This document shows positions 2,721-18,220 of a DNA stretch of 56,818 nt, piece by piece. The notes under the pieces were generated by a model, which was not told the origin of the DNA, did not search any database, and saw only the letters and a program-made list of their open reading frames with translations. Every line of letters begins with the position of its first letter. Position 1 is the first letter of the stretch. This stretch comes from an uncultured Dehalococcoidales bacterium (GTDB taxonomy: Bacteria > Chloroflexota > Dehalococcoidia > Dehalococcoidales > W111): NCBI GenBank assembly GCA_964575695.1, contig CAZNSC010000003.1, positions 1-56,818 on the forward strand, read 5' to 3'. A program made the translations under genes and the position numbers.

Positions 2721-3592
2721 TGAGCACCATGGCTGCTACACCAAGCGTTCAAACACCGAGGCCTGCTCGGTCAGCAACTGCTGCCAGCCGTGCCGCCTTC
2801 AATGCCCTGCTGCTGCGTGACCTCACCGTACTGAGAAAGAATCTGGGTGTCTTCATCGCCCGCACCCTTATCCAGCCCTTTCTCCTGGTCTTTGTTTTCC
2901 TCTACGTATTTCCTCAGATTGGTGAGGGTGTGGGCGCAAGCTCGGCAGGTGGACTATCGTCTTTTGCGACCGTATTGGTGGCCGGCGTTGTGGGCTTGTC
3001 CATTATGTTCCAGGGAATTCAGGCAGTGGCGTTGCCTCTTGCCAACGAGTTCGGCTACACGAAAGAGATTGAAGACCGGGTGCTCGCACCCCTGCCAGTA
3101 TCGCTCGTGGCCATCGGCAAGGTAGTTGCCGGGGCCGTCCAGGGCCTCATCGCCGCGGCGATTGTGTTCCCGATTGCCGCGGTTGTCCATGCCAAGGGTG
3201 TGCAGCCCAACCTTTCGGTGCACTGGGTGCTTTTGCTTACACTCATCCCGCTAACCTGTATCATGACCTCCGGTCTTGGTCTGTTCCTGGGGACTCGTAT
3301 TTCACCACGCGACATTGGCATCATGTTCGGGTTCATAGTTTTACCCATAACCTTCCTCGGCGGCACTTATTACCCGTGGACAACTCTGGCCGCTATCAAG
3401 GTCGGGGGATTCTCCTGGCTGCAGGCATTGGTCTGCATTAACCCGCTCATCTATGTGACTGAGGGCTTTCGCGCGGCACTGACCACAGCACCGCACATGC
3501 CGCTATATGTGGTTTACCCTGTTCTCTCAGTATTCTGTGTCATGTTCCTCTGGGCTGGTTGCCGTGGCTTCCATAGGAGGGTTATAAGCTAG
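2720..3592 (+). CDS. ABC-2 type transporter permease
   Basis: ATGA stop/start overlap with the ATPase gene. Multiple hydrophobic TM segments and typical ABC-2 length (290 aa). Confidence 0.85.
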   Translation: MSTMAATPSVQTPRPARSATAASRAAFNALLLRDLTVLRKNLGVFIARTLIQPFLLVFVFLYVFPQIGEGVGASSAGGLSSFATVLVAGVVGLSIMFQGIQAVALPLANEFGYTKEIEDRVLAPLPVSLVAIGKVVAGAVQGLIAAAIVFPIAAVVHAKGVQPNLSVHWVLLLTLIPLTCIMTSGLGLFLGTRISPRDIGIMFGFIVLPITFLGGTYYPWTTLAAIKVGGFSWLQALVCINPLIYVTEGFRAALTTAPHMPLYVVYPVLSVFCVMFLWAGCRGFHRRVIS

Positions 3593-6659: not shown

Positions 6660-7286
6660 TTACAGGTCTTGTTTTAAGGACACCACAGCCCACTTTTCTT
6701 GGAAACTCCCCCCTCGTTCGACTCTGAATCCTTCAAGTATCTTCTCCCACTCCGCTTGGTCTACATAACCCAGAGGAGGCCCAGCACCCAGGCTAAGGTA
6801 TGCCTGTCCACTTGACTTGAGGATACGCTTCATTTCTTTTACAGACAACTGTCTGTCGTCAGCCATAGATCACAATAGGCCATTGGCAAGAATGAAGTCA
6901 ACCGACCTGTCTTTTATAAAGCTCACGTCGGAGGCAGATGAAGCATGTGCTTCGATGTTGCGGTAACCACCTTTACCTGCTCTTTTCTCTAGCGTTCGGA
7001 TACTCGTTTTGCCCAGATCAACCGCATAGACCTTTCCTTCGGGACCAACGAGTTCAGCCAAAGGGAGCGTATAGTAACCTGAGCCGCAACCAAGGTCAGC
7101 AACCACCTGCCCTTTCTTGACGTAGGGTCCGATAAGTCTTTGAGGGGGTTCAAACAGCCTTCTGATTGGGTTCAGAATCGCTGGAATCGATGGTCGTCTC
7201 CTCATTAATAACCAGCGTGACGCCGTCGACTTTGTTTGGTCTTTGGGCTGTTTCTTTCCCCCAGGTTCATGTTTTTCTTTGCCCAT
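6660..7286 (-). CDS. Class I SAM-dependent methyltransferase interrupted by one in-frame TGA (selenocysteine candidate or pseudogene)
   Basis: ORFs 6870-7286 (motif I DLGCGSGY) and 6660-6866 are in the same frame, separated by TGA (6870-6872) plus one codon. Paralog of 15626-16177. Hairpin at 6841-6856. Confidence 0.7.
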
Positions 7287-8417: not shown

Positions 8418-8684
8418 TTAAAGGCTGGTAGGCGAGTGTCCATAAATCACGAACTTGACCACCTTGCCCTTTACCAGCCATTTCTCAGACTCCGCCCTTA
8501 GCTTTCCAAAATCCGTGGTCTGTAGAAAAAGCCTCAAAATCTCAAGTCTCTCTTCGAGCTCTTTGCTTGTTTCTCTTGGAGCAAGGAGTTGCTTTAAGGT
8601 ATCTTCATATTTTCTTCCGGCTACCGTTTCAATATAGTGAGAGAGGTCCGGAACCAGTTCAATCTGCAGCATCTCACGCCTCAT
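8418..8684 (-). CDS. Hypothetical protein, paralog of 14950-15243
   Basis: About 40% identity over 41 aa (LEILRLFLQTTDFGKLRAESEKWLVKGKVV vs FEMLVSFLKSPESQKLRDESERYLAEGKQV). Starts 2 nt after the upstream stop. Confidence 0.55.
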   Translation of the reverse strand: MRREMLQIELVPDLSHYIETVAGRKYEDTLKQLLAPRETSKELEERLEILRLFLQTTDFGKLRAESEKWLVKGKVVKFVIYGHSPTSL

Positions 8685-9305: not shown

Positions 9306-9334
9306 TTGACAAAGAGGGGCATAAGGTGTATTAT
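9306..9334 (+). promoter_or_regulatory. Sigma70-type promoter of the 9.4-17.4 kb operon
   Basis: TTGACA (9306-9311), a 17-nt spacer and TATTAT (9329-9334), 66 nt upstream of ATG 9400. Confidence 0.6.
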
Positions 9335-9348
9335 GGTTATGAGCATAT

Positions 9349-9372
9349 GTGCAATACACTAATGTTATGCAC
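9349..9372. promoter_or_regulatory. Imperfect 24-nt palindrome in the operon leader (candidate operator)
   Basis: GTGCAATACACTAATGTTATGCAC matches its own reverse complement at 18 of 24 positions. It lies between the -10 box and the RBS. Confidence 0.3.
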
Positions 9373-9399
9373 AAAACATCAATAATAGGAGAATCGTTT

Positions 9400-9873
9400 A
9401 TGGGAAGACCACAACTGTGGCGGCGCGTTAGCTTCGTACCACCAATAACCTATTTCAAGCCCGCCGGGATACCCTTGGCCAGTCTGCAAGAAGTACACCT
9501 TCTTGTTGAAGAAGCGGAGGCAATTCGGCTTAAGGACCTTGAGGGGCTGGAGCAGGAGGAATGCGCCCAGAAGATGAACATCTCCAGGAGCACTTTCTCC
9601 CGCATATTGGATTCAGCCCGGCAGAAAATTGCCGACGCTCTACTTAACGGTAAGGCAATACGGATTGAGGGCGGCAATTTTGAGATGGCGGTGCGCCGCT
9701 TCAGATGCATAAGTGGCCATGAGTGGGATGTGCCCTTTGAGAGTCTGGTTACTGCTCCACCTGAGCTTTGCCCTAAGTGTGACACGCCGAGCATTATGCC
9801 GCTTCTGCCACCTGGAATGGGATGGGGTCGGCGTGGTTGGGGAAGGCGCCACCGGGGAGGACGTAGCCGGTAG
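9400..9873 (+). CDS. DUF134 (UPF0251) HTH protein with C-terminal zinc ribbon and RG/GW-rich tail
   Basis: [39 protein letters not shown] and GKAIRIEGG. These are followed by CISGHEW..CPKCD and [19 protein letters not shown]. Confidence 0.85.
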
Positions 9874-9887
9874 AGGAGTCTTACAAC

Positions 9888-10625
9888 GTGAAAGTCCTTG
9901 ATGATTTGCTGGCAATATTGGATACGGAAGCTAGCGTAAAAGACATACGCCAGGGTCTTTTCCATACCGCGGTGCTGACCCGAAACTGCGGCCTGGCGGC
10001 AACGCTTCCACGAGACGCCCTTCGGCAGGAACAACCATCGATCAAGATAAAGGAGCCCGGGTTCCTGCTGGAGAAAAATGCCTTGCATCTGGCTCGAATG
10101 TGTTATTCGGAAAGTATTCTTGAAGCAGCTATTGGCGTGGCTACCATCAACTCGCTCCTCGAGATTGACGAAGGGAGCTGCCAGAGCCTCAATGCCCGGG
10201 ACCTTATTGCTGAGGAAGGAAGGAATAGGAGAGTCGCCATCGTGGGCCATTTCCCCTTTATACCCAAGCTTCGTGAGGTGGTGAAAGAACTCTGGGTAAT
10301 CGAGAAGAATCCAAGGGAAGGAGACTTCGCCGAAGCTGAGGCAGAGGATTTCATCCCGCAGGCTGATGTCGTGGGTATCACCGGTACCGCTTTTACCAAC
10401 CACACCATTGAGCGCTTACTGCAACTATGCAATCCCGATGCTTACGTGGTGATACTTGGAGATACTGCCCCCTTGTCTCCCATTCTCTTTGACTATGGTA
10501 TTGATGCCATATCAGGCACGAAGGTAATTGACCCGGACTTGGCCCTCCGTTGCGTGAGTGAGGGAGCCACCTACCGGCAGATTAAAGGAATTCGCCAACT
10601 TACTATGATGAGGAACAGGAGATAA
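9888..10625 (+). CDS. DUF4213/DUF364 family protein (putative metal-chelation, Rossmann-like)
   Basis: GTG start after GAGGAG. N-terminal ...FHTAVLTRNCGLA and C-terminal VAIVGHFPFI...ILGDT pattern typical of the family. Confidence 0.7.
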   Translation: MKVLDDLLAILDTEASVKDIRQGLFHTAVLTRNCGLAATLPRDALRQEQPSIKIKEPGFLLEKNALHLARMCYSESILEAAIGVATINSLLEIDEGSCQSLNARDLIAEEGRNRRVAIVGHFPFIPKLREVVKELWVIEKNPREGDFAEAEAEDFIPQADVVGITGTAFTNHTIERLLQLCNPDAYVVILGDTAPLSPILFDYGIDAISGTKVIDPDLALRCVSEGATYRQIKGIRQLTMMRNRR

Positions 10626-10628
10626 ACA

Positions 10629-11039
10629 TTGAACCGGCGCAGCACGGAGCAGCGTGAACTAATGCAGGAAATCCTGCAGTGTGCTGACGGCCACCTGGAC
10701 GCCGATGAGATCTACCAGCAGGCCCGCCAGAGGGCACCCAGCATCAGCCTATCCACTGTATACCGTAATTTGCAGCTGTTCAAGGAACTGGGCTTGGTCG
10801 AGGAGCACCAGTTTGGCAGTCGCCGATATTATGAACCGGCCCCTCAAGCCAAGCATCACCACCTGGTATGCCTGGGCTGCGGTCGGGTTTTTGAATTCAA
10901 ATGTCCGTCCAGTGACAGGCTTAGAGACGAAATTAGCAGAAAAGAAGGATTCAGGGTGACCGAAGCTGAGGTTCGTCTTGCTGGATATTGTCCGGATTGC
11001 CAGGAGCGCCTGTCTGTTAGTGCTAGCGAAAACAGATGA
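10629..11039 (+). CDS. Fur family transcriptional regulator
   Basis: TEQRELMQEIL...LSTVYRNLQLFKELGLV winged helix. HHHLVCLGCG and C-terminal CPDC metal sites. TTG start. Confidence 0.85.
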   Translation: MNRRSTEQRELMQEILQCADGHLDADEIYQQARQRAPSISLSTVYRNLQLFKELGLVEEHQFGSRRYYEPAPQAKHHHLVCLGCGRVFEFKCPSSDRLRDEISRKEGFRVTEAEVRLAGYCPDCQERLSVSASENR

Positions 11040-11064
11040 ATATCCGGTGAAGGAGGTGAGGTAA

Positions 11065-11274
11065 ATGCCATTCGGAGATGGGACTGGACCAAGGGGGATA
11101 GGACCGATGACGGGAAGGGGAGCTGGCTACTGTGCTGGCTTTGGCCGGCCCGGCTTTGCCAACCCGATACCGGGAAGAAGGTGGTCTGGCTTTGGCTGGA
11201 GAGGCTGGGGGCGCGGCAGAGGTAGAGGCTCCGGCTGGCGCTGGTGTAGACCGTACTGGTACTCTTGGTGGTAG
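11065..11274 (+). CDS. DUF5320-type low-complexity protein (N-terminal-half type)
   Basis: MPFGDGTGPRGIGPMTGRGAGYCAG followed by an RG/GW-rich tail ending WYSWW. GAAGGAGGTGAGG RBS. Confidence 0.75.
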   Translation: MPFGDGTGPRGIGPMTGRGAGYCAGFGRPGFANPIPGRRWSGFGWRGWGRGRGRGSGWRWCRPYWYSWW

Positions 11275-11309
11275 AAGCACAAATAGAAATCTTTGTGGAG
11301 GTGGGAGAT

Positions 11310-11519
11310 ATGTGGCCCTGTTATGGATACTGGCATCCATGGGGAGGGGGCGGGCACAGGCACTGGTGGGTTCCACCTTTTGCCTGGGCGTGGGCACCCG
11401 TACCCAAGGAAGAAGAGATAGCCATGCTGGAAGAGCAGGCACGAATACTTGGGTGTGAACTGGAAAGCATCACGAAGAGACTTGAAGAGTTGAAGAAACA
11501 GGAGGTGAAAAATGCCTAA
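11310..11519 (+). CDS. Trp/Gly-rich protein with DUF5320-type C-terminal coiled coil
   Basis: ATG 11310 after GGAGGTGGGAG. WPCYGYWHPWGGGGHRHWWVPPFAWAWAP followed by EEEIAMLEEQARILGCELESITKRLEELKK. Confidence 0.65.
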   Translation: MWPCYGYWHPWGGGGHRHWWVPPFAWAWAPVPKEEEIAMLEEQARILGCELESITKRLEELKKQEVKNA

Positions 11520-11856
11520 TGGATTTGGACGAGGAAGAGGCTTCGGCCGCGGCTTTGGTGGAGGTATGGGTTTCGGTTTCCGTGGTGCCTCGCCTCCCTG
11601 GCCCTACGTGGGGATAGGCAGAGGTGGACTGCCGCGATGCGGCTACTTTTTGAGTGGCGCTGGCGCGCCTGCGCCCTGGCAGTACCAGGCCCCCTTCTAT
11701 GGTCAACCAGCCGCCCCTGGCTATACACCCTTTACGCCTCAAATGACCAAAGAGGATGAGCTTGACTATTTGAGAGACCAGGCGGAGGCGGTAAAGGGGC
11801 AGCTAGAGGAGATTGAAGCCAGGATGCGTGACCTGGAGAGCAAGCAAAAGGAATAA
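11512..11856 (+). CDS. DUF5320 family protein (RG/FG-rich plus coiled coil)
   Basis: MPNGFGRGRGFGRGFGGGMGFGFRG... then EDELDYLRDQAEAVKGQLEEIEARMRDLE. AGGAGGTG RBS. 8-nt overlap with the previous gene. Confidence 0.75.
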   Translation: MPNGFGRGRGFGRGFGGGMGFGFRGASPPWPYVGIGRGGLPRCGYFLSGAGAPAPWQYQAPFYGQPAAPGYTPFTPQMTKEDELDYLRDQAEAVKGQLEEIEARMRDLESKQKE

Positions 11857-11870
11857 CTGAGGAGGAGGCC

Positions 11871-12482
11871 ATGAAAATCGCAATTTCGGCGGCGGGTTCT
11901 AGTCTCGATGCCGGGGTAGACCCTCGCTTCGGGCGGTGTCAGTATTTCATTGTTGCCGACGCGGAGACGAAGGAATTTGAGGCGGTGGACAACTCCAGTG
12001 CCATGGCAGCCGGTGGAGCCGGTATTTCGGCCGCTCAGGCGATTGCCGATAAGGGCGTGGAGGCAGTCCTGACCGGAAACTGCGGCCCTAACGCCTATCA
12101 AGTGCTGTCCTCTGCTGGCATCCGGGTGATAACCGGTGTTTCCGGCAAGATAAGGGACGCTATCGAAGGCTACCGGTCGGGTAGGTTCCAGTCAAGCGCC
12201 CAGCCCAATGTACCCGACCACTTTGGTGTGGGCGGAAGGCCTGGTATAGGAGGTGGCCCTGGCGCGGGCAGAGGTATGGGAATGGGGAGAGGGATGGGCA
12301 GAGGAATGGGTATGGGGTTTGGCATGACCCCGCCGGTGAGTGCAATACCCCAGCCGCAGAGTCCAGAGCAAGAGCTTGAGACGCTTAAAGCGCAGTCACA
12401 GGCAATGGCACAGCAGCTGGCTGACATTCAGCGCCGTATTGATGGGCTAGAAAAGAAAAGTGAAGGGAATGTTCAGTTCTGA
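11871..12482 (+). CDS. NifX/NifB-C-terminal-like cofactor-binding domain fused to a Gly/Met-rich segment and coiled coil
   Basis: MKIAISA...DPRFGRCQYFIV...LTGNCGPNAY is dinitrogenase FeMo-cofactor-binding-domain-like. GRGMGMGRGMGRGMGMGFGM lies at 12225-12326, followed by a coiled coil. Confidence 0.85.
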   Translation: MKIAISAAGSSLDAGVDPRFGRCQYFIVADAETKEFEAVDNSSAMAAGGAGISAAQAIADKGVEAVLTGNCGPNAYQVLSSAGIRVITGVSGKIRDAIEGYRSGRFQSSAQPNVPDHFGVGGRPGIGGGPGAGRGMGMGRGMGRGMGMGFGMTPPVSAIPQPQSPEQELETLKAQSQAMAQQLADIQRRIDGLEKKSEGNVQF

Positions 12483-12531: not shown

Positions 12532-12729
12532 ATGCCCAAAGGAGATGGAACCGGGCCTCCGCGCACTTCGGCGCAGAGGAGCGGTCGAATGAAAGGGAAT
12601 CGAGCGGGGGCAGGACCCGGCGGCAACTGTGTGTGCCCTAGCTGTGGCGAGAAGGTGCCTCATCAGCAGGGAATACCTTGTTACGGTGTGAGCTGTCCCA
12701 AATGTGGGGTAAAGATGGTCAGAGGCTAA
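12532..12729 (+). CDS. Cys4 zinc-ribbon mini-protein with DUF5320-like N-terminus
   Basis: MPKGDGTGP... then CVCPSCG...CPKCG. GAGGAGGTGG RBS. Confidence 0.7.
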   Translation: MPKGDGTGPPRTSAQRSGRMKGNRAGAGPGGNCVCPSCGEKVPHQQGIPCYGVSCPKCGVKMVRG

Positions 12730-12731
12730 AA

Positions 12732-13604
12732 ATGTTAATATCAGTCGCCAGCGGTAAAGGCGGGACGGGTAAGACGCTGGTAGCCACTAGTCTTGCTCTC
12801 TCCTTGAAAGATAGCCACAAGGTCGTGCTTCTTGACTGTGATGTCGAGGAGCCCAACGACCATATTCTACTAAAGCCAGTAATTGTCGGCAGTGAACCAG
12901 TTCATATCCAAGTACCCAAGGTTACAGAGGATAAATGTACCTGTTGCGGCAGGTGCGCTCAGGTATGTGTCTATCACGCCATTGCCGTACTGGGCAATCA
13001 TGTGCTGACCTTTCCCCAGCTCTGCCACGGGTGTGGTGCCTGCAGCTACCTCTGCCCGGAGAAGGCTATCGCTGAAGAGACCAGGGAGACAGGCGTGGTT
13101 GAGTGGGGGCGCTCGGATGGCATCGGTCTTGTACACGGCATACTCACGGTGGGTGAGGCGATGGCGCCGCCGGTTATCAGGAAGGTGAAAGAATATGGCA
13201 AAGACAATGGCGATGGCGTAGTCATCAGAGATGTTCCGCCGGGCACATCCTGCCCGGTAGTCGAAGCAATTAAAGGAAGCGATTTCTGTCTGCTGGTAAC
13301 CGAGCCGACTCCGTTCGGGCTCAACGACCTCATGCTTGCCGCCGAAACGGTGAGGGAGCTCAACATACCCTGTGGCGTTGTCCTCAACCGTGCCGGTGTC
13401 GGCGACGCCGGAGTAGAAGAATACTGCCGAAAAGAGAATATCCCTGTTCTGCTCACCGTCCCCCTGGATACCGAGATTGCCCGCCTGTATTCGAGGGGGA
13501 TTCCCTTGATTGAGGGTATGCCAGAGTGGAAAGAGCGTTTCGTGGCGCTATTTGACGGAATTCGGGAGATAGCAAATGAGAGAGTTAGTCGTATTAAGCG
13601 GTAA
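12732..13604 (+). CDS. MinD/CooC-type P-loop ATPase with inserted 2x[4Fe-4S] ferredoxin domain
   Basis: Deviant Walker A SGKGGTGKT. CTCCGRCAQVCVYHAI and CHGCGACSYLCPEKAI motifs. Confidence 0.9.
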   Translation: MLISVASGKGGTGKTLVATSLALSLKDSHKVVLLDCDVEEPNDHILLKPVIVGSEPVHIQVPKVTEDKCTCCGRCAQVCVYHAIAVLGNHVLTFPQLCHGCGACSYLCPEKAIAEETRETGVVEWGRSDGIGLVHGILTVGEAMAPPVIRKVKEYGKDNGDGVVIRDVPPGTSCPVVEAIKGSDFCLLVTEPTPFGLNDLMLAAETVRELNIPCGVVLNRAGVGDAGVEEYCRKENIPVLLTVPLDTEIARLYSRGIPLIEGMPEWKERFVALFDGIREIANERVSRIKR

Positions 13605-14448
13605 AGGAGGCACCGGAAAGACCAGCATCGTTGGTTCCCTGGCTGCTCTGGCTCAAAGCAAGGTGCTGGCTGACTGCGATGTGGATGCGGCTGACCTGTA
13701 CCTGCTGCTCAGCCCCACCGTCAGGGAGAATAACGAGTTCTGGAGCGGACAGGTGGCCTATATAGACAAAGACGGATGCACTGAGTGTGGACTGTGCCAG
13801 GAGTTGTGCCGTTTTAATGCTATCAAGGATTTCAGAGTTGACCCGGTAGCCTGTGAGGGATGTGGTTTCTGTTCTCGCATCTGCCCGGTTGAAGCCATCA
13901 CTATGAAAGAAAATATGGCTGGGCGTTGGTTTATCTCCGATACCGGGTATGGCCCGCTGGTTCATGCCAAACTTGGCATTGCCCAGGAGAATTCAGGGAA
14001 GCTGGTGGCGCTGGTCCGGCAGCGGGCGAGACAGACTGCCGATAAAGAGGGAAAAGATTTCATCATCAGTGACGGCCCGCCCGGTATCGGCTGCCCGGTA
14101 ATCTCATCACTTTCCGGGGCCAGCCTGGCTCTTCTGGTTACTGAGCCGACGTTATCCGGGATACATGACCTGGAGAGAGTCCTGGGCGTGTGCCAGCATT
14201 TCGGCGTCCCGGCCAAGGTATGCATCAACAAGTGCGACCTGAACGAGGAAAACAGCCGGCAGATAGAAAATAACTGTCTTAGCCTGGGAGTAGAGATAGC
14301 CGGGAGGGTTCCTTTTGATAACCTTGTTACTGAATCAATCGTCCGGGGGGTACCGGTGGTGGAATATTCCAGGGGCAGAGTCACTCAAGCGATAGAAAGA
14401 ATGTGGCGCACTCTGTCGGCGATGCTGGGGAATGGTAGCCAGAGGTGA
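13576..14448 (+). CDS. Second MinD/CooC-type ATPase with 2x[4Fe-4S] ferredoxin domain
   Basis: SGKGGTGKTS, CTECGLCQELCRFNAI and CEGCGFCSRICPVEAI. Overlaps the previous gene by 29 nt. Confidence 0.9.
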   Translation: MRELVVLSGKGGTGKTSIVGSLAALAQSKVLADCDVDAADLYLLLSPTVRENNEFWSGQVAYIDKDGCTECGLCQELCRFNAIKDFRVDPVACEGCGFCSRICPVEAITMKENMAGRWFISDTGYGPLVHAKLGIAQENSGKLVALVRQRARQTADKEGKDFIISDGPPGIGCPVISSLSGASLALLVTEPTLSGIHDLERVLGVCQHFGVPAKVCINKCDLNEENSRQIENNCLSLGVEIAGRVPFDNLVTESIVRGVPVVEYSRGRVTQAIERMWRTLSAMLGNGSQR

Positions 14449-14454
14449 CAGACT

Positions 14455-14634
14455 ATGCCAATCTATGAGTACGGATGTCTTAAATGCAGTGAGCGCTTCG
14501 AGCTACGGCGGAGCATGAGCGATAGCGACCGGGAAGTAAAATGTCCCAGGTGTGGGACAGAGAATCCGCGCCGCGTCTTCTCCGCCTTTGCCACAGCTTC
14601 TGGCGGCTCCTGTGCTCCGAGCGGCCCCACCTGA
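14455..14634 (+). CDS. FmdB-family zinc-ribbon protein (59 aa, below the ORF-track cutoff)
   Basis: My translation is MPIYEYGCLKCSERFELRRSMSDSDREVKCPRCGTENPRRVFSAF..., the CxxC-CxxC FmdB signature. Confidence 0.75.
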   Translation: MPIYEYGCLKCSERFELRRSMSDSDREVKCPRCGTENPRRVFSAFATASGGSCAPSGPT

Positions 14635-14698: not shown

Positions 14699-14926
14699 GT
14701 GCCAATTTACGATTTTAAGTGTCGAGAGTGCGGCAAGGTGTCAGAGGTACTTATCCGGGGTGCCGAGGAGCCACCTCGCTGCCCCGATTGCGGCAGTGAT
14801 GACTTGGAGAGGCTCATGTCCTCACCCAATATGGTCAGGACGACTACTCGGGCTCCCGGCACTACTTGCTGTGGCCGGGATGAGCGTTGCGGTGCGCCGC
14901 CTTGTTCTACCGGGGATCCCTGCTGA
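14699..14926 (+). CDS. FmdB-family zinc-ribbon protein with Cys-rich tail
   Basis: GTG start after AAAGGAGGGG. PIYDFKCRECG...CPDCGS then TCCGRDERCGAPPC. Confidence 0.8.
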   Translation: MPIYDFKCRECGKVSEVLIRGAEEPPRCPDCGSDDLERLMSSPNMVRTTTRAPGTTCCGRDERCGAPPCSTGDPC

Positions 14927-14949
14927 CGGCACTAGGGAGGATAGACAAC

Positions 14950-15243
14950 GTGGAGCCGATTGACCTCAAGCCAGGGTATTCAAGCAGTAATGTGCCGGGG
15001 AAATGTATCAAGTGCCTGGCTGAGCAGGAGCTTGATAGGTGCCTTCTTGAGTTAATGAGAGCCGGGTCAGACGATAAGGCGTTGGCGCAGAGATTTGAGA
15101 TGCTGGTATCTTTCTTGAAATCGCCTGAGTCGCAGAAGCTGCGTGACGAATCAGAGAGGTATCTTGCTGAGGGGAAACAGGTGACTGTCAGGATATCTTT
15201 TGAAGACGGGAATCCCAAATACGAACTCAAAGTAAATCAGTAA
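14950..15243 (+). CDS. Hypothetical protein (paralog of 8418-8684)
   Basis: GTG 14950 after GGGAGG. Contains CIKC and shares the C-terminal motif KLRDESERYLAEGKQV. Confidence 0.6.
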   Translation: MEPIDLKPGYSSSNVPGKCIKCLAEQELDRCLLELMRAGSDDKALAQRFEMLVSFLKSPESQKLRDESERYLAEGKQVTVRISFEDGNPKYELKVNQ

Positions 15244-15255
15244 ACGGAGGTATCT

Positions 15256-15594
15256 ATGAAGTATGCCGTACCAATAAGCGGCGGTATGGTATCGCCACAC
15301 TTCGGTCATTGTGAGCATTTTGCCCTGATCGACGTTGACGAGGAAAGTAAGAAGATAATCAGGAAAGAGCTTATCCCGTCACCGGGTCACCAGCCCGGTC
15401 TTCTTCCCCAATGGCTGGCGGAGCGAGGTGTCGCCTTTGTGATTGCCGGCGGTATGGGCTCCCGGGCACAGAGCCTTTTCCAGCAAAATCGCATCGGGGT
15501 CATCATCGGTGCCATGGAAAGCGACCCGGAGAAGGCGGTTCTGAGTTATGTGAATGGTCTACTAGCTACCGGGGATAACATATGTGACCATTAA
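15256..15594 (+). CDS. NifX/NifB-like cofactor-binding domain protein
   Basis: MKYAVPISGGMVSPHFGHCEHFALIDV...VIAGGMGSRA is typical of the family. ACGGAGG RBS. Confidence 0.85.
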   Translation: MKYAVPISGGMVSPHFGHCEHFALIDVDEESKKIIRKELIPSPGHQPGLLPQWLAERGVAFVIAGGMGSRAQSLFQQNRIGVIIGAMESDPEKAVLSYVNGLLATGDNICDH

Positions 15595-15625
15595 ATTAAA
15601 TGGGAGTTACCCAGGAGGGAGCCAC

Positions 15626-16177
15626 ATGCCTAGACGAGAGGCAATCTGTCCTCAGTCCAATGTTGATTTCAGGCTCATGTCTTTGTCCTATAAATTTCGG
15701 GATTTCATCAAACCCCGCATTCGTGTCCTGGAAGAGGTAGGCATTAAAGAAGGATTCCACGTCTTGGATTATGGCTGTGGTCCCGGAAGTTACATTGTAC
15801 CCCTTGCTGAACTGGTAGGTAAGTCGGGGAAGATTTATGCTCTGGATGTCCATCCACTTGCTATCCAGTCGGTTCGAAGGATAGCAGCCAGGAAACGACT
15901 GGTGAATGTGCATACCATCCTCTCCGACAGCAAGACTGGATTACAGCCCGATAGCTTGGATGTGGTTCTTCTGTACGATATCCTTCACGACCTGGATAAC
16001 CCGAACGGAGTGCTGGAAGAGTTGCACCGGGTGTTAAAACGAAAAGGCATTTTATCGGTGAGCGACCACCACATGAGGCAAGATGAAATAGTATCCAGGG
16101 TAGCCAGTAATGGGCTATTTACGTTATCAGCAAAGGGTAGAAGAACGTATGGTCTCTCATGCCAGAAGAAAGTCTAA
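15626..16177 (+). CDS. Class I SAM-dependent methyltransferase
   Basis: Motif I VLDYGCGPGSY and post-I KIYALDV. ATG 15626 after AGGAGGGAG. Paralog of 6660-7286. Confidence 0.85.
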   Translation: MPRREAICPQSNVDFRLMSLSYKFRDFIKPRIRVLEEVGIKEGFHVLDYGCGPGSYIVPLAELVGKSGKIYALDVHPLAIQSVRRIAARKRLVNVHTILSDSKTGLQPDSLDVVLLYDILHDLDNPNGVLEELHRVLKRKGILSVSDHHMRQDEIVSRVASNGLFTLSAKGRRTYGLSCQKKV

Positions 16178-16209: not shown

Positions 16210-17214
16210 ATGCCAACAAAGGAGCAGGTAATTGAAAGCCTTGAAGCCGTATTGGTGCCCGCTGCGAAACGCAGCATAGTGGGGCTGAACCTGGTGCGCG
16301 ATATAACCATCTCCAATGGTAAAGTAGATGTTGCCCTGGCGTCCACCGGCCTGATTCCAGGGGCGCAGGACTGGATCAAAGCCAAAGCCAGAGAAGCTAT
16401 TGAGAAGCTGCCTGAAGTCAATGAAGTCAAGGTGGAGTATAGTGACTTCAAGGCAAAGGAGTTGAACAAGATTGACCACATCCTCGCCGTGATGAGCGGC
16501 AAGGGAGGAGTGGGCAAGTCGCTGGTGTCAAGCCTGGTTGCCATCGCGCTGAAGCGCCAGGGCTATGAGGTGGGCATTCTGGATGCCGATATCACCGGCC
16601 CGAGCATACCCAAGATGTTCGGCCTCAACGTTCGGCCAGGCGGCAACGAAAGTGGGATACTGCCGGTGCTGTCGAGGTCAGGAGTTGAAATCATGTCCAT
16701 CAACCTCCTCCTGCCCAGCGAGGATGATGCTGTTATCTGGCGAGGACCCCTGATCGGAAAAGCGATTACCCAATTTGGGGAGGAGGTGCTCTGGGGAAAG
16801 CTGGACTATCTGATTATAGACCTGCCTCCAGGTACTGCGGATGCACCGCTTACGGTGATGCAGTCCTTCCCAATTTCAGGGGTGATTATTGTTTTTACCC
16901 CTCAGGATTTGACCACGATGGTAGTCAGAAAAGCGGTCAAGATGGCCCAGCAAATGAGTAAACCTGTGCTGGGCGTTGTTGAGAATATGAGCTACCTGTA
17001 TGTATCTGAGATAGACAAAAAGATAGAGCTCTTTGGCAAGAGCCGGGGCGAGGAAATGTCCCGTGCCGCCCAGGCCCCCCTGCTGGCGCAGTTGCCCATA
17101 GACCCGGAGCTGGCCAGGCTCTGTGATGAGGGGAATATCGAGCGCTACAACAGCGATATTGTAAGTAGTCTGGCCGACTCCCTGTCTAAAGTAATTCCAG
17201 CTAGAGCCAGGTAA
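16210..17214 (+). CDS. DUF59-Mrp/NBP35/ApbC-type P-loop ATPase lacking the CxxC cluster motif
   Basis: N-terminal DUF59-like domain, SGKGGVGKS, DLPPGTAD. VENMSYLYVSEIDKKIELFG sits where ApbC has ENMSxxxCxxCG. Confidence 0.9.
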   Translation: MPTKEQVIESLEAVLVPAAKRSIVGLNLVRDITISNGKVDVALASTGLIPGAQDWIKAKAREAIEKLPEVNEVKVEYSDFKAKELNKIDHILAVMSGKGGVGKSLVSSLVAIALKRQGYEVGILDADITGPSIPKMFGLNVRPGGNESGILPVLSRSGVEIMSINLLLPSEDDAVIWRGPLIGKAITQFGEEVLWGKLDYLIIDLPPGTADAPLTVMQSFPISGVIIVFTPQDLTTMVVRKAVKMAQQMSKPVLGVVENMSYLYVSEIDKKIELFGKSRGEEMSRAAQAPLLAQLPIDPELARLCDEGNIERYNSDIVSSLADSLSKVIPARAR

Positions 17215-17547: not shown

Positions 17548-18220
17548 ATGCTACAGGTGTTGGTGGTAGATCACCACGAAATCTGGCGCGTCGGGGTATC
17601 AAAGATACTTGGTGAACAGCTAGGCATCCAGGTGGTAGAACCATGCAGTAATATAAATCAATGTCTGGAGAAAGTTGCCCGATATTGTTCTTCTAGATAC
17701 TGAACTACGAGAACCAAGCTACGTCGAGATTATTCAGCACATCCATGAATGTGGCTCCAAGGCAAAGGTACTCATGCTCACTCATTCAGAGAGGGAAGAG
17801 GATGTTTATTACGCTATCAAAGCAGGAGCCAAGGGGTATGTTAGCAAAGAGGTAGCAATAGAAGACCTGGTGAAGGCCATCTTCCTTGTGGCAAGCGGAG
17901 GGGTTGTACTATCCCCTATGGTAGCAACTCAAGTTCTCGAAGAATTTGCAGAATCTTTTCCAGAGAGGCAGCGTATACATCGGAGGGGTGGCTTTGAACT
18001 CACTGAGCGAGAAAAGGAAGTTCTGGTATTAGTAGCCAAGGGCGCAAACAACCGAGCGATAGCCTCGTCCTTATGTATTACAGAAAACACTGTCAAGGTG
18101 CACTTGCGCAACATAATGGGGAAACTGCAAGTACATAACCGCTTGCATGCAGCAGCAAGGATGCTGGAAGAAGAGGCACTGCATCGTAGAACAGGAGGAC
18201 CTGCTTCAAATAAATGGTGA
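17548..18220 (+). pseudogene. NarL/FixJ-type response regulator, frameshifted near 17675
   Basis: The receiver N-terminus MLQVLVVDHHEIWR... (frame of 17548) stops at 17698. PDIVLLD...LuxR HTH (EREKEVLVLVAKGANNRAIASSLCITENTVKVHL) continues in another frame. Confidence 0.65.

Follow-up and report, generated by a model that had tools for sequence, protein, structure and literature searches.

Positions 11065-12482 of a 56,818-nucleotide stretch of DNA from an uncultured Dehalococcoidales bacterium (contig CAZNSC010000003.1; hereafter the window) encode a row of small proteins of extreme amino acid composition. The window is derived from a sediment metagenome, and the nearest named relatives of this DNA are Dehalococcoidia metagenome-assembled genomes. 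The row was found to be an array of tandem DUF5320 paralogs, encoded by the open reading frames (ORFs) ORF4, ORF5 and ORF6, followed by a NifX/orange-protein-like protein, ORF7, which carries the same DUF5320 tail. The array is located in a conserved operon of anaerobes for the handling of iron-sulfur (metal-sulfide) clusters, of the type exemplified by the orange protein (ORP) complex and by IssA. DUF5320 proteins are modular; they combine a 23-residue N-terminal motif with one Cys (the N-motif), a disordered segment free of acidic residues and Lys, and a heptad helix of about 33 residues, and the low-complexity parts are under purifying selection. The assignment to the DUF5320 family and the NifX-DUF5320 architecture were already known, but the function was not. 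We tentatively propose that the small proteins form a polycationic matrix for an anionic metal-sulfide.

Modules of the DUF5320 array

The DUF5320 family corresponds to Pfam entry PF17253, which has a gathering cut-off of 27 bits, applied here to the whole-protein score. Four plus-strand products passed this cut-off: ORF4 (11065-11274; 69 residues, isoelectric point (pI) 11.8; 57.7 bits, profile positions 1-59), ORF5 (11310-11519; 69 residues; 28.1 bits, positions 48-99), ORF6 (11512-11856; 114 residues; 28.2 bits, positions 1-99) and the tail of ORF7 (11871-12482; 38.0 bits, E = 4e-9, positions 28-97). A typical family member has 110-130 residues and comprises the N-motif, a low-complexity segment and the helix. 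ORF6 has this canonical layout, whereas ORF4 (motif and segment) and ORF5 (segment and helix) each hold only part of the profile, and ORF7 combines the NifX domain with segment and helix. A survey of 80 metagenome loci (designated L001 and so on) yielded 149 distinct DUF5320-type ORFs, in which every combination of modules was found. The profile search returned 4,874 representative clusters at E≤1e-3; a search of solved structures revealed none related to DUF5320.

Within the N-motif, residues M1, P2, T7, G8, P9, G13, P14, M15, T16, G17, G21 and C23 were invariant in the alignments. ORF4 contains the complete motif, MPxGDGTGPxGxGPMTGRGxGxC, followed by a GW/RG-rich segment with WW at its C-terminal end. 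Its orthologs have 69 residues and 60-86% identity, and it was predicted by AlphaFold2 to be wholly disordered. It belongs to a widespread subtype of coil-less N-motif proteins that end in (RG)n and Trp; a Trp was present in the last two residues of 41 of the 67 complete coil-less N-motif proteins, as against none of the 64 coil-bearing proteins. ORF6 has a degenerate N-motif (MPNGFGRGRG), a conserved GGLPRCGYF sequence with a single Cys, a Pro/aromatic-rich segment and the heptad helix, and has orthologs in L001, L003, L005 and other loci. The start MPxG(D/F)G(T/R)G that an earlier note on this DNA ascribed to three of the proteins fits MPFGDGTG (11065), MPNGFGRG (11512) and MPKGDGTG (12532, the start of ORF8, described below).

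The N-motif is absent from ORF5, which begins with a Trp-rich stretch (seven Trp in 30 residues, not the eight previously counted) and continues into the C-terminal heptad helix of DUF5320. Its homologs form 27 clusters, mostly of 43-69 residues, and begin MWPWYGYWHPW.

Some ORFs in the surveyed loci contain tandem double N-motifs (L034, L041, L054, L057, L058, L062, L063, for example at 2793-3290, and L073), with two stretches confirmed by Pfam. The second motif starts with Met-Pro again (for example, ...KEVIDMPFGDGTGP), which could reflect an internal start or a need for Met-Pro itself.

ORF7 also lacks the N-motif. Its first 112 residues form a NifX/orange-protein-like domain; a (GMGR)n segment occupies residues 113-165, and the heptad helix of DUF5320 spans residues 165-199. 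The Nitro_FeMo-Co match covers residues 13-102 (Pfam, 2.1e-25), and the best match of the domain in the PDB was the orange protein 2WFB (E 8.2e-22, residues 2-113), followed by MTH1175 (5e-19). In the AlphaFold2 model the domain had a predicted local confidence (pLDDT) above 90, residues 118-162 were below 50 and thus predicted to be disordered, and residues 165-199 formed a single helix. Both the NifX domain and the DUF5320 tail were present in nearly all of the best 120 homologs.

The GM repeat (12267-12326) varies in-frame among related strains in other metagenomes. An insertion of 12 nucleotides (ATGGGCCGTGGT) was observed at 12281 and a deletion of 6 nucleotides at 12282, and the number of GMGR units differs among orthologs.

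The coiled coils described in the earlier note were borne out, and a single heptad register is common to the ORF5, ORF6 and ORF7 segments. In these segments Leu, Ile, Val or Met occupied 64-70% of the heptad a/d positions, compared to 7-11% of the other positions, and all three helices follow the pattern E-E-L..L..Q...L..I..R...LE.

The biased composition of the segments also was confirmed. All of the peptides that had been quoted from them translate as reported and from the coordinates given, and their composition lies far beyond that of a background of 8,344 residues from 21 large ORFs of the window. Gly, Arg and Trp account for 27 of the 42 residues at positions 28-69 of ORF4, where the background maximum was 17 per 42-residue stretch; Gly, Arg and Met account for 20 of 22 residues in the ORF7 repeat, against a background maximum of 10. 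Among the surveyed proteins, Gly made up 33%, Met 18.5%, Arg 8% and aromatic residues 1% of the segments linked to a NifX domain (n = 22), and stand-alone segments (n = 108) contained 25% Gly, 3% Met, 12% Arg, 20% aromatic residues and 13% Pro. This composition was kept in homologs; the earlier note had named its loss among homologs as a sign that the proposal was wrong, and that objection therefore fails.

The low-complexity parts are under purifying selection. Ratios of nonsynonymous to synonymous substitution (dN/dS), computed against the orthologs in L001, L003 and L008, were 0.015 for the N-motif of ORF4 and 0.24-0.30 for its low-complexity part, 0.06-0.16 for the low-complexity part of ORF6 and 0.15-0.17 for that of ORF7. 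For ORF5-type genes the median ratio of nonsynonymous to synonymous polymorphism (pN/pS) was 0.30 (45 pairs, ten distinct genes). Since selection acts in the stated frames, the small ORFs are real genes that are read in those frames. Each has a GGAGG-type ribosome-binding site 6-9 nucleotides 5' of its ATG. ORFs on the opposite strand or in other frames of the G-rich DNA, such as minus-strand 11023-11442, were discarded, since it is the plus-strand frames that are under selection. In one sediment metatranscriptome, contigs with 85-95% similarity extended across ORF4-ORF6 and the ATPase genes; this is weak evidence for transcription of the orthologs, given that carry-over of DNA is possible in that data set.

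When ORF5 was compared with its counterpart in L003 (6244-6450), the synonymous divergence (dS) was only 0.20, compared to 0.8-1.0 for the flanking genes. This low value could reflect recent gene exchange between lineages or an extra constraint on the RNA or DNA.

The ORF4-ORF5 junction

ORF4 and ORF5 are located in different frames, 35 nucleotides apart, and correspond to the N- and C-parts of the DUF5320 profile, as had been proposed. The accompanying suspicion of an indel around 11270-11310 was not supported; no indel was present between 11041 and 11673 in the Logan contigs of four runs. An unsplit relative does exist, since in protein P0027, encoded on L085, the two parts are joined in frame and the C-terminus is almost identical to ORF5. 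The L085 DNA is colinear with the window, but lacks about 117 nucleotides, comprising the last codons of ORF4, its stop codon, the spacer with the ribosome-binding site and the first codons of ORF5, as well as a further 27 nucleotides; as a result, the ORF4 frame joins the ORF5 frame. The gene pair also was found in L003, L004 and L005, and ORF4 was found without ORF5 in L001 and in some contigs of run X3.

The different frames, the short spacing, the joint coverage of the profile and the joined ORF of L085 are what would be expected if a single gene had been broken by a sequencing or assembly indel, and it may be asked in the same way if the low-complexity ORFs are genes at all. However, the split pair recurs in independent JGI, Logan, ENA and NCBI assemblies, with a separate ribosome-binding site and ATG for each half. 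Purifying selection was detected in both, no indel variants were seen in the contigs of four runs, and certain relatives carry ORF4 but no ORF5. An artefact is excluded by these conservation data, and we assign it next to no probability. Since the split is conserved and the junction contains no indel, it represents an evolutionary fission or fusion in repeat-rich DNA and not an error. Programmed frameshifting or read-through was dropped as an explanation in view of the two in-frame stop codons, the 35-nucleotide spacer with its strong ribosome-binding site and the relatives that lack ORF5.

An additional short ORF was observed between the ORF4-type and ORF5-type genes of L005 (1000-1170). It starts with a truncated N-motif (MPFGMGPAGW...) and has an RG...YYYPWW end like that of ORF4, which is further evidence of module shuffling in the array.

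An operon for metal-sulfide cluster handling

The genes at 9.3-17.2 kb of the window form a single, densely packed row on the plus strand. Upstream of the array are genes for a DUF134 (helix-turn-helix) regulator (9400-9873; Pfam DUF134, 1.7e-24), a DUF4213/DUF364 protein annotated as "putative heavy-metal chelation" (9888-10625; Pfam; syntenic in L003, L025 and other loci) and a Fur-family metalloregulator (10629-11039; Pfam FUR, 4.5e-33). The gene that follows ORF7, ORF8 (12532-12729), encodes a 65-residue protein that begins MPKGDGTGP and continues through a basic stretch rich in Gly to a zinc ribbon with four Cys, and has syntenic homologs in many loci; only the first nine residues of the N-motif are present in it. 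Next are two MinD/ParA-type P-loop ATPases (12732-13604 and 13576-14448), both Orp3/Orp4-like and both with an inserted 2x[4Fe-4S] ferredoxin domain (Pfam CbiA/ParA and Fer4). They are followed by two small Cys proteins of the Zn_ribbon_8 (FmdB) type (14455-14634 and 14699-14926; Pfam), an AF_2379-like protein (14887-15243; Pfam), a second NifX-like (Nitro_FeMo-Co) protein (15256-15594; Pfam, 1.3e-21), an S-adenosylmethionine-dependent methyltransferase (15584-16177; Pfam) and an Mrp/NBP35-type Fe-S carrier ATPase with FeS_assembly_P and ParA/NUBPL matches (16210-17214; Pfam ParA, 2.8e-87).

This gene content resembles that of the ORP complex of Desulfovibrio (Orp3, Orp4, Orp5, Orp8 and MrpORP), in which a pair of MinD-ferredoxin ATPases is joined by a single-domain NifX-like protein, MrpORP and a small Fe-S protein (PMC6345978). 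MrpORP consists of an Mrp/NBP35 part fused to a [3Fe-4S]-binding Di-Nase domain with CxHFGHCE and CDH motifs; it is polar in the cell, the complex has been linked to cell division, the MinD-like ATPases co-purify with the NifX-like Orp8, and the orange protein holds an S2MoS2CuS2MoS2 cluster (PMC6345978). The operon in the window likewise encodes two MinD-like ATPases, each with two [4Fe-4S] motifs, a NifX-like protein (ORF7), an Mrp/NBP35 carrier and Di-Nase-type HFGHCE/CDH motifs, the last being found in the second NifX-like protein as SPHFGHCEHF and a C-terminal ICDH. In contrast to Desulfovibrio, where MrpORP is one fused protein, two genes are present here (15256-15594 and 16210-17214), and the NCBIfam model for MrpORP gave only a partial match, far below its cut-off. 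The DUF5320, DUF134, DUF364 and Fur components are unreported for the Desulfovibrio cluster. The Desulfovibrio operons also are sigma-54 dependent, with a cognate activator, whereas the site upstream of the genes in the window is sigma-70-like; no sigma-54 site (TGGCAC-N5-TTGCW, with up to 2 mismatches) was found between 4358 and 11988.

Synteny was surveyed in the 80 metagenome loci, each downstream count being based on the loci that were long enough for the distance in question. DUF5320 genes occurred in arrays of one to four. A NifX-domain gene was located within 1.5 kb downstream of the array in 23 of 31 loci, MinD-Fer4 genes were located within 4 kb downstream in 15 of 17, and a DUF134 gene was located upstream in 17 of 42. 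The (GMGR)n segment and the helix were present in nearly all of the syntenic NifX proteins. In L054 (11020-11811) and L046 (3557) a NifX domain, GM tail and coil are fused to a 2x[4Fe-4S] ferredoxin in a single protein, and in L071 (5329-5886) one protein combines DUF134, the N-part of DUF5320 and a Zn ribbon. The DUF5320-type part of the L071 protein is the ORF8-type module, which in that context scores as DUF5320 positions 1-53. Consistent with the earlier note, the same types of module are carried by the NifX-like protein and the DUF134 regulator.

The DUF134 and Fur proteins are the regulators encoded within the operon. The DUF134 start codon is likely to be the ATG at 9400 and not the GTG at 9349, because homologs begin MGRP or MPRP. 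Besides a part with Cys and His that resembles a zinc ribbon, the protein has a tail of Arg and Gly (9814-9870), and an RG-rich tail ends nearly all of the DUF134 homologs in syntenic loci. Despite the common composition of the one and the shared first nine residues of the other, neither the DUF134 protein nor ORF8 gave a DUF5320 match in Pfam at E≤0.01.

The presence of such tails on a DNA-binding protein, together with the DUF134-DUF5320 fusion, would be explained if the Arg/Gly segments acted as RGG boxes and the proteins were RNA- or DNA-binding factors, possibly specific for G-quadruplexes, that work with DUF134. A scan for a quadruplex-binding RG motif in Methanosarcina mazei placed one DUF134 and one DUF5320 protein among its four best matches (PMC7565180). 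The likeness to eukaryotic RGG/RG domains of the FUS and LAF-1 type, namely Arg/Gly spacers with aromatic residues and disorder, is one of composition; the proteins described here differ in being bacterial, in being encoded in a metal-cluster operon, in their invariant Cys motif and in having no RNA-binding domains. Furthermore, the tail also is fused to cluster-binding NifX and ferredoxin domains, the neighbouring genes encode Fe-S proteins rather than RNA-handling proteins, and neither the invariant Cys motif nor the Met-rich variant has a role in an RGG box. A nucleic-acid-binding function is accordingly considered to be very unlikely.

Just upstream of the likely DUF134 start codon at 9400, a near-consensus sigma-70-like promoter (TTGACA-17-TATTAT, 9306-9334, plus strand) and an 11-nucleotide inverted repeat (TGTGCAATACA-N4-TGTTATGCACA, 9348-9373, plus strand) were identified by consensus matching. 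Transcription of the operon is probably controlled from this region (9306-9373), in which the inverted repeat may serve as an operator for Fur or DUF134.

Several other features of the locus were recorded. The methyltransferase gene lies between the second NifX-like gene and the Mrp gene and has a paralog upstream (6870-7286, minus strand); its close homologs in L068 and L084 (E of about 1e-46) are neighbours of NifX or MinD genes, and L003 has a weaker homolog. It is conceivable that this enzyme acts on Arg/Gly-rich substrates. The AF_2379-like protein also has a small paralog (8418-8684, minus strand), with which it shares the pattern L..FL.....KLR.ESE..L..GK.V. In at least ten other loci divergently oriented homologs are found immediately upstream of DUF134, and the protein is probably a further conserved member of the cluster. 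The operon is directly followed by the gene for a response regulator of the LuxR/GerE type (17675-18220), the receiver domain of which is partial; no link to the operon is claimed.

Possible functions of the array

The closest characterised analogue is IssA (PF2025) of Pyrococcus furiosus, which has the same type of NifX-like domain (IPR003731) followed by a disordered 70-residue tail (Vaccaro 2017, PMC5524996). The IssA tail contains 21% Gly, 10% cationic residues, 20% aromatic residues and 16% Pro, has a pI of 10.7 and one Cys, and is poor in acidic residues; Trp, Gly and Arg are the key residues, and it has been proposed to wrap electrostatically around anionic thioferrate, an Fe-S polymer (PMC5524996). 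MTH1175, the second match of the ORF7 domain, was placed in the IssA clade, and homologs from non-thermophiles with a Gly-rich tail were termed IssX and are uncharacterised (PMC5524996). The stand-alone segments of ORF6 and ORF4 match the published composition of the IssA tail almost number for number; in the low-complexity part of ORF6, Gly makes up 27%, cationic residues 8%, aromatic residues 19% and Pro 15%, with a single Cys and a pI of 10.5. In the window this composition is found on separate small proteins with an invariant N-terminal Cys motif, which is unreported for IssA, and the segment in the tail of ORF7 precedes an acidic heptad helix. The hosts differ as well, the window being derived from a mesophilic, Dehalococcoidia-like bacterium and IssA from a hyperthermophilic archaeon.

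On the basis of these comparisons, the small proteins may constitute a polycationic disordered matrix that binds an anionic metal-sulfide and co-assembles through the shared coiled coil. The NifX-like domain would nucleate or hold the metal-sulfide, either as a thioferrate-like Fe-S polymer or as an ORP-like thiometallate cluster, and the polycationic segments would wrap it electrostatically, with additional contacts from aromatic or Met side chains. The homologous helices would bundle ORF5, ORF6 and ORF7 into one multivalent assembly, giving a store or scaffold that is part protein and part inorganic. Loading and unloading of this store might be the task of the MinD-ferredoxin and Mrp ATPases, and Fur and the tailed DUF134 regulator might govern expression of its genes. 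We favour this reading and regard it as quite possible, although it falls somewhat short of being probable.

Several observations weigh against such a matrix. Simple electrostatics leaves unexplained why the N-motif, with its one invariant Cys, is so extremely conserved (dN/dS 0.015), and coil-less forms such as ORF4 cannot enter a helix bundle. The likeness to the IssA tail is based on published composition numbers and not on a sequence alignment. ORF7 itself falls outside the published definitions of both IssA (pI of at least 9, fewer than 5 Cys and at least 20% Gly in the last 40 residues) and IssX (pI of at least 8, fewer than 10 Cys and at least 10% Gly in the last 40 residues) (Vaccaro 2017, PMC5524996); it has a pI of 6.6 and 2 Cys, and Gly makes up 5% of the last 40 residues. 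The Gly-rich part of ORF7 lies internally and is Met-rich rather than aromatic (4% aromatic residues, no Cys). Finally, a literature search on DUF5320 returned only two incidental mentions, which contained no binding, assembly or expression data.

Because electrostatics does not account for the invariant N-motif with its single Cys or for the terminal Trp, these features point to a specific partner or ligand. This gap keeps alive another model, in which the DUF5320 proteins would be disordered, condensate-prone adaptors that link the MinD/ParA ATPases to a cargo, namely an Fe-S particle or the ORP/NifX complex, so that it can be positioned or partitioned; the C-terminal Trp would make the contact with the cargo. 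The precedent is McdB, the adaptor of the carboxysome-positioning ParA-type ATPase McdA, in which an invariant Trp at the C-terminus is required both for binding the cargo and for forming condensates (PMC11321042). Like McdB, which is disordered and condensate-prone, the DUF5320 proteins are small and predicted to be disordered, may be prone to condensation, often have a coiled coil and are encoded beside a ParA/MinD-family ATPase, as seen in 15 of 17 loci; ORF4, with its terminal WW and full predicted disorder, and most coil-less DUF5320 proteins share the C-terminal Trp, which was confined to the coil-less proteins (41 of 67, as against 0 of 64). The polar location of MrpORP and the link of the ORP complex to cell division also are consistent with this model. 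The comparison is based on shared features and not on sequence homology, however, and there are differences: the ATPases encoded here have ferredoxin inserts, no microcompartment genes are found nearby, and the Trp-ended forms are coil-less. In addition, the co-purification of ferredoxin-bearing ATPases with Orp8 in Desulfovibrio is a better fit to cluster maturation than to positioning, and the DUF5320 tail is fused most often to the NifX domain and not to an ATPase. A role as McdB-like adaptors is therefore regarded as unlikely.

A combination of the matrix and adaptor models also was considered. In a bacterial Fe-S "mineral body", the NifX-like domain would nucleate an anionic Fe-S polymer and the disordered DUF5320 proteins would supply its multivalent matrix, a protein-inorganic condensate that coheres through the shared coiled coil and through contacts of Arg, aromatic and Met residues; Trp-ended, coil-less members would be McdB-like adaptors that pass the body on to the two MinD-type ATPases, by which it would be positioned or inherited, and DUF134 would sense the state of the body through its tail. 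We judge this composite picture to be improbable. If true, it would provide a joint function for DUF5320, with about 4,900 representative clusters, and for the long-enigmatic ORP-type clusters.

The Met-rich segment of ORF7 suggests a different role again, in which the Met thioethers of (GMGR)n would bind a thiophilic metal, be it Cu(I) or another, and the segment would feed an orange-protein-type Mo/Cu-sulfide cluster. Met makes up 18.5% of the NifX-linked segments, which are from distant lineages, compared to 3% of the stand-alone segments, and is therefore selected specifically beside the NifX domain; moreover, among solved structures the orange protein, with its S2MoS2CuS2MoS2 cluster, is the one most closely related to the ORF7 domain. 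In contrast, the operon contains no copper- or molybdenum-handling genes, its regulator is Fur and its carriers are of Fe-S types. Met-rich copper sites often include His, Cys and Asp, residues that are absent from the GM repeats. Soft-metal binding by the repeat is held to be an improbable explanation.

To our knowledge, IssA is the only Fe-S storage protein to have been described, and the storage and traffic of iron and sulfide in strict anaerobes are poorly understood. The locus links IssA and ORP in that an ORP-type operon encodes both a NifX-like protein with an IssA-style disordered tail and an array with the composition of the IssA tail. DUF5320 is thereby tied to IssA/ORP-type iron-sulfur handling more tightly than in the literature that was searched. 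The array also represents a clean bacterial case of disordered segments that are conserved in composition, in which the aromatic and Met-rich variants are each kept by selection. If the proposed matrix is correct, DUF5320 proteins would be the missing matrix or adaptor components of Fe-S stores.

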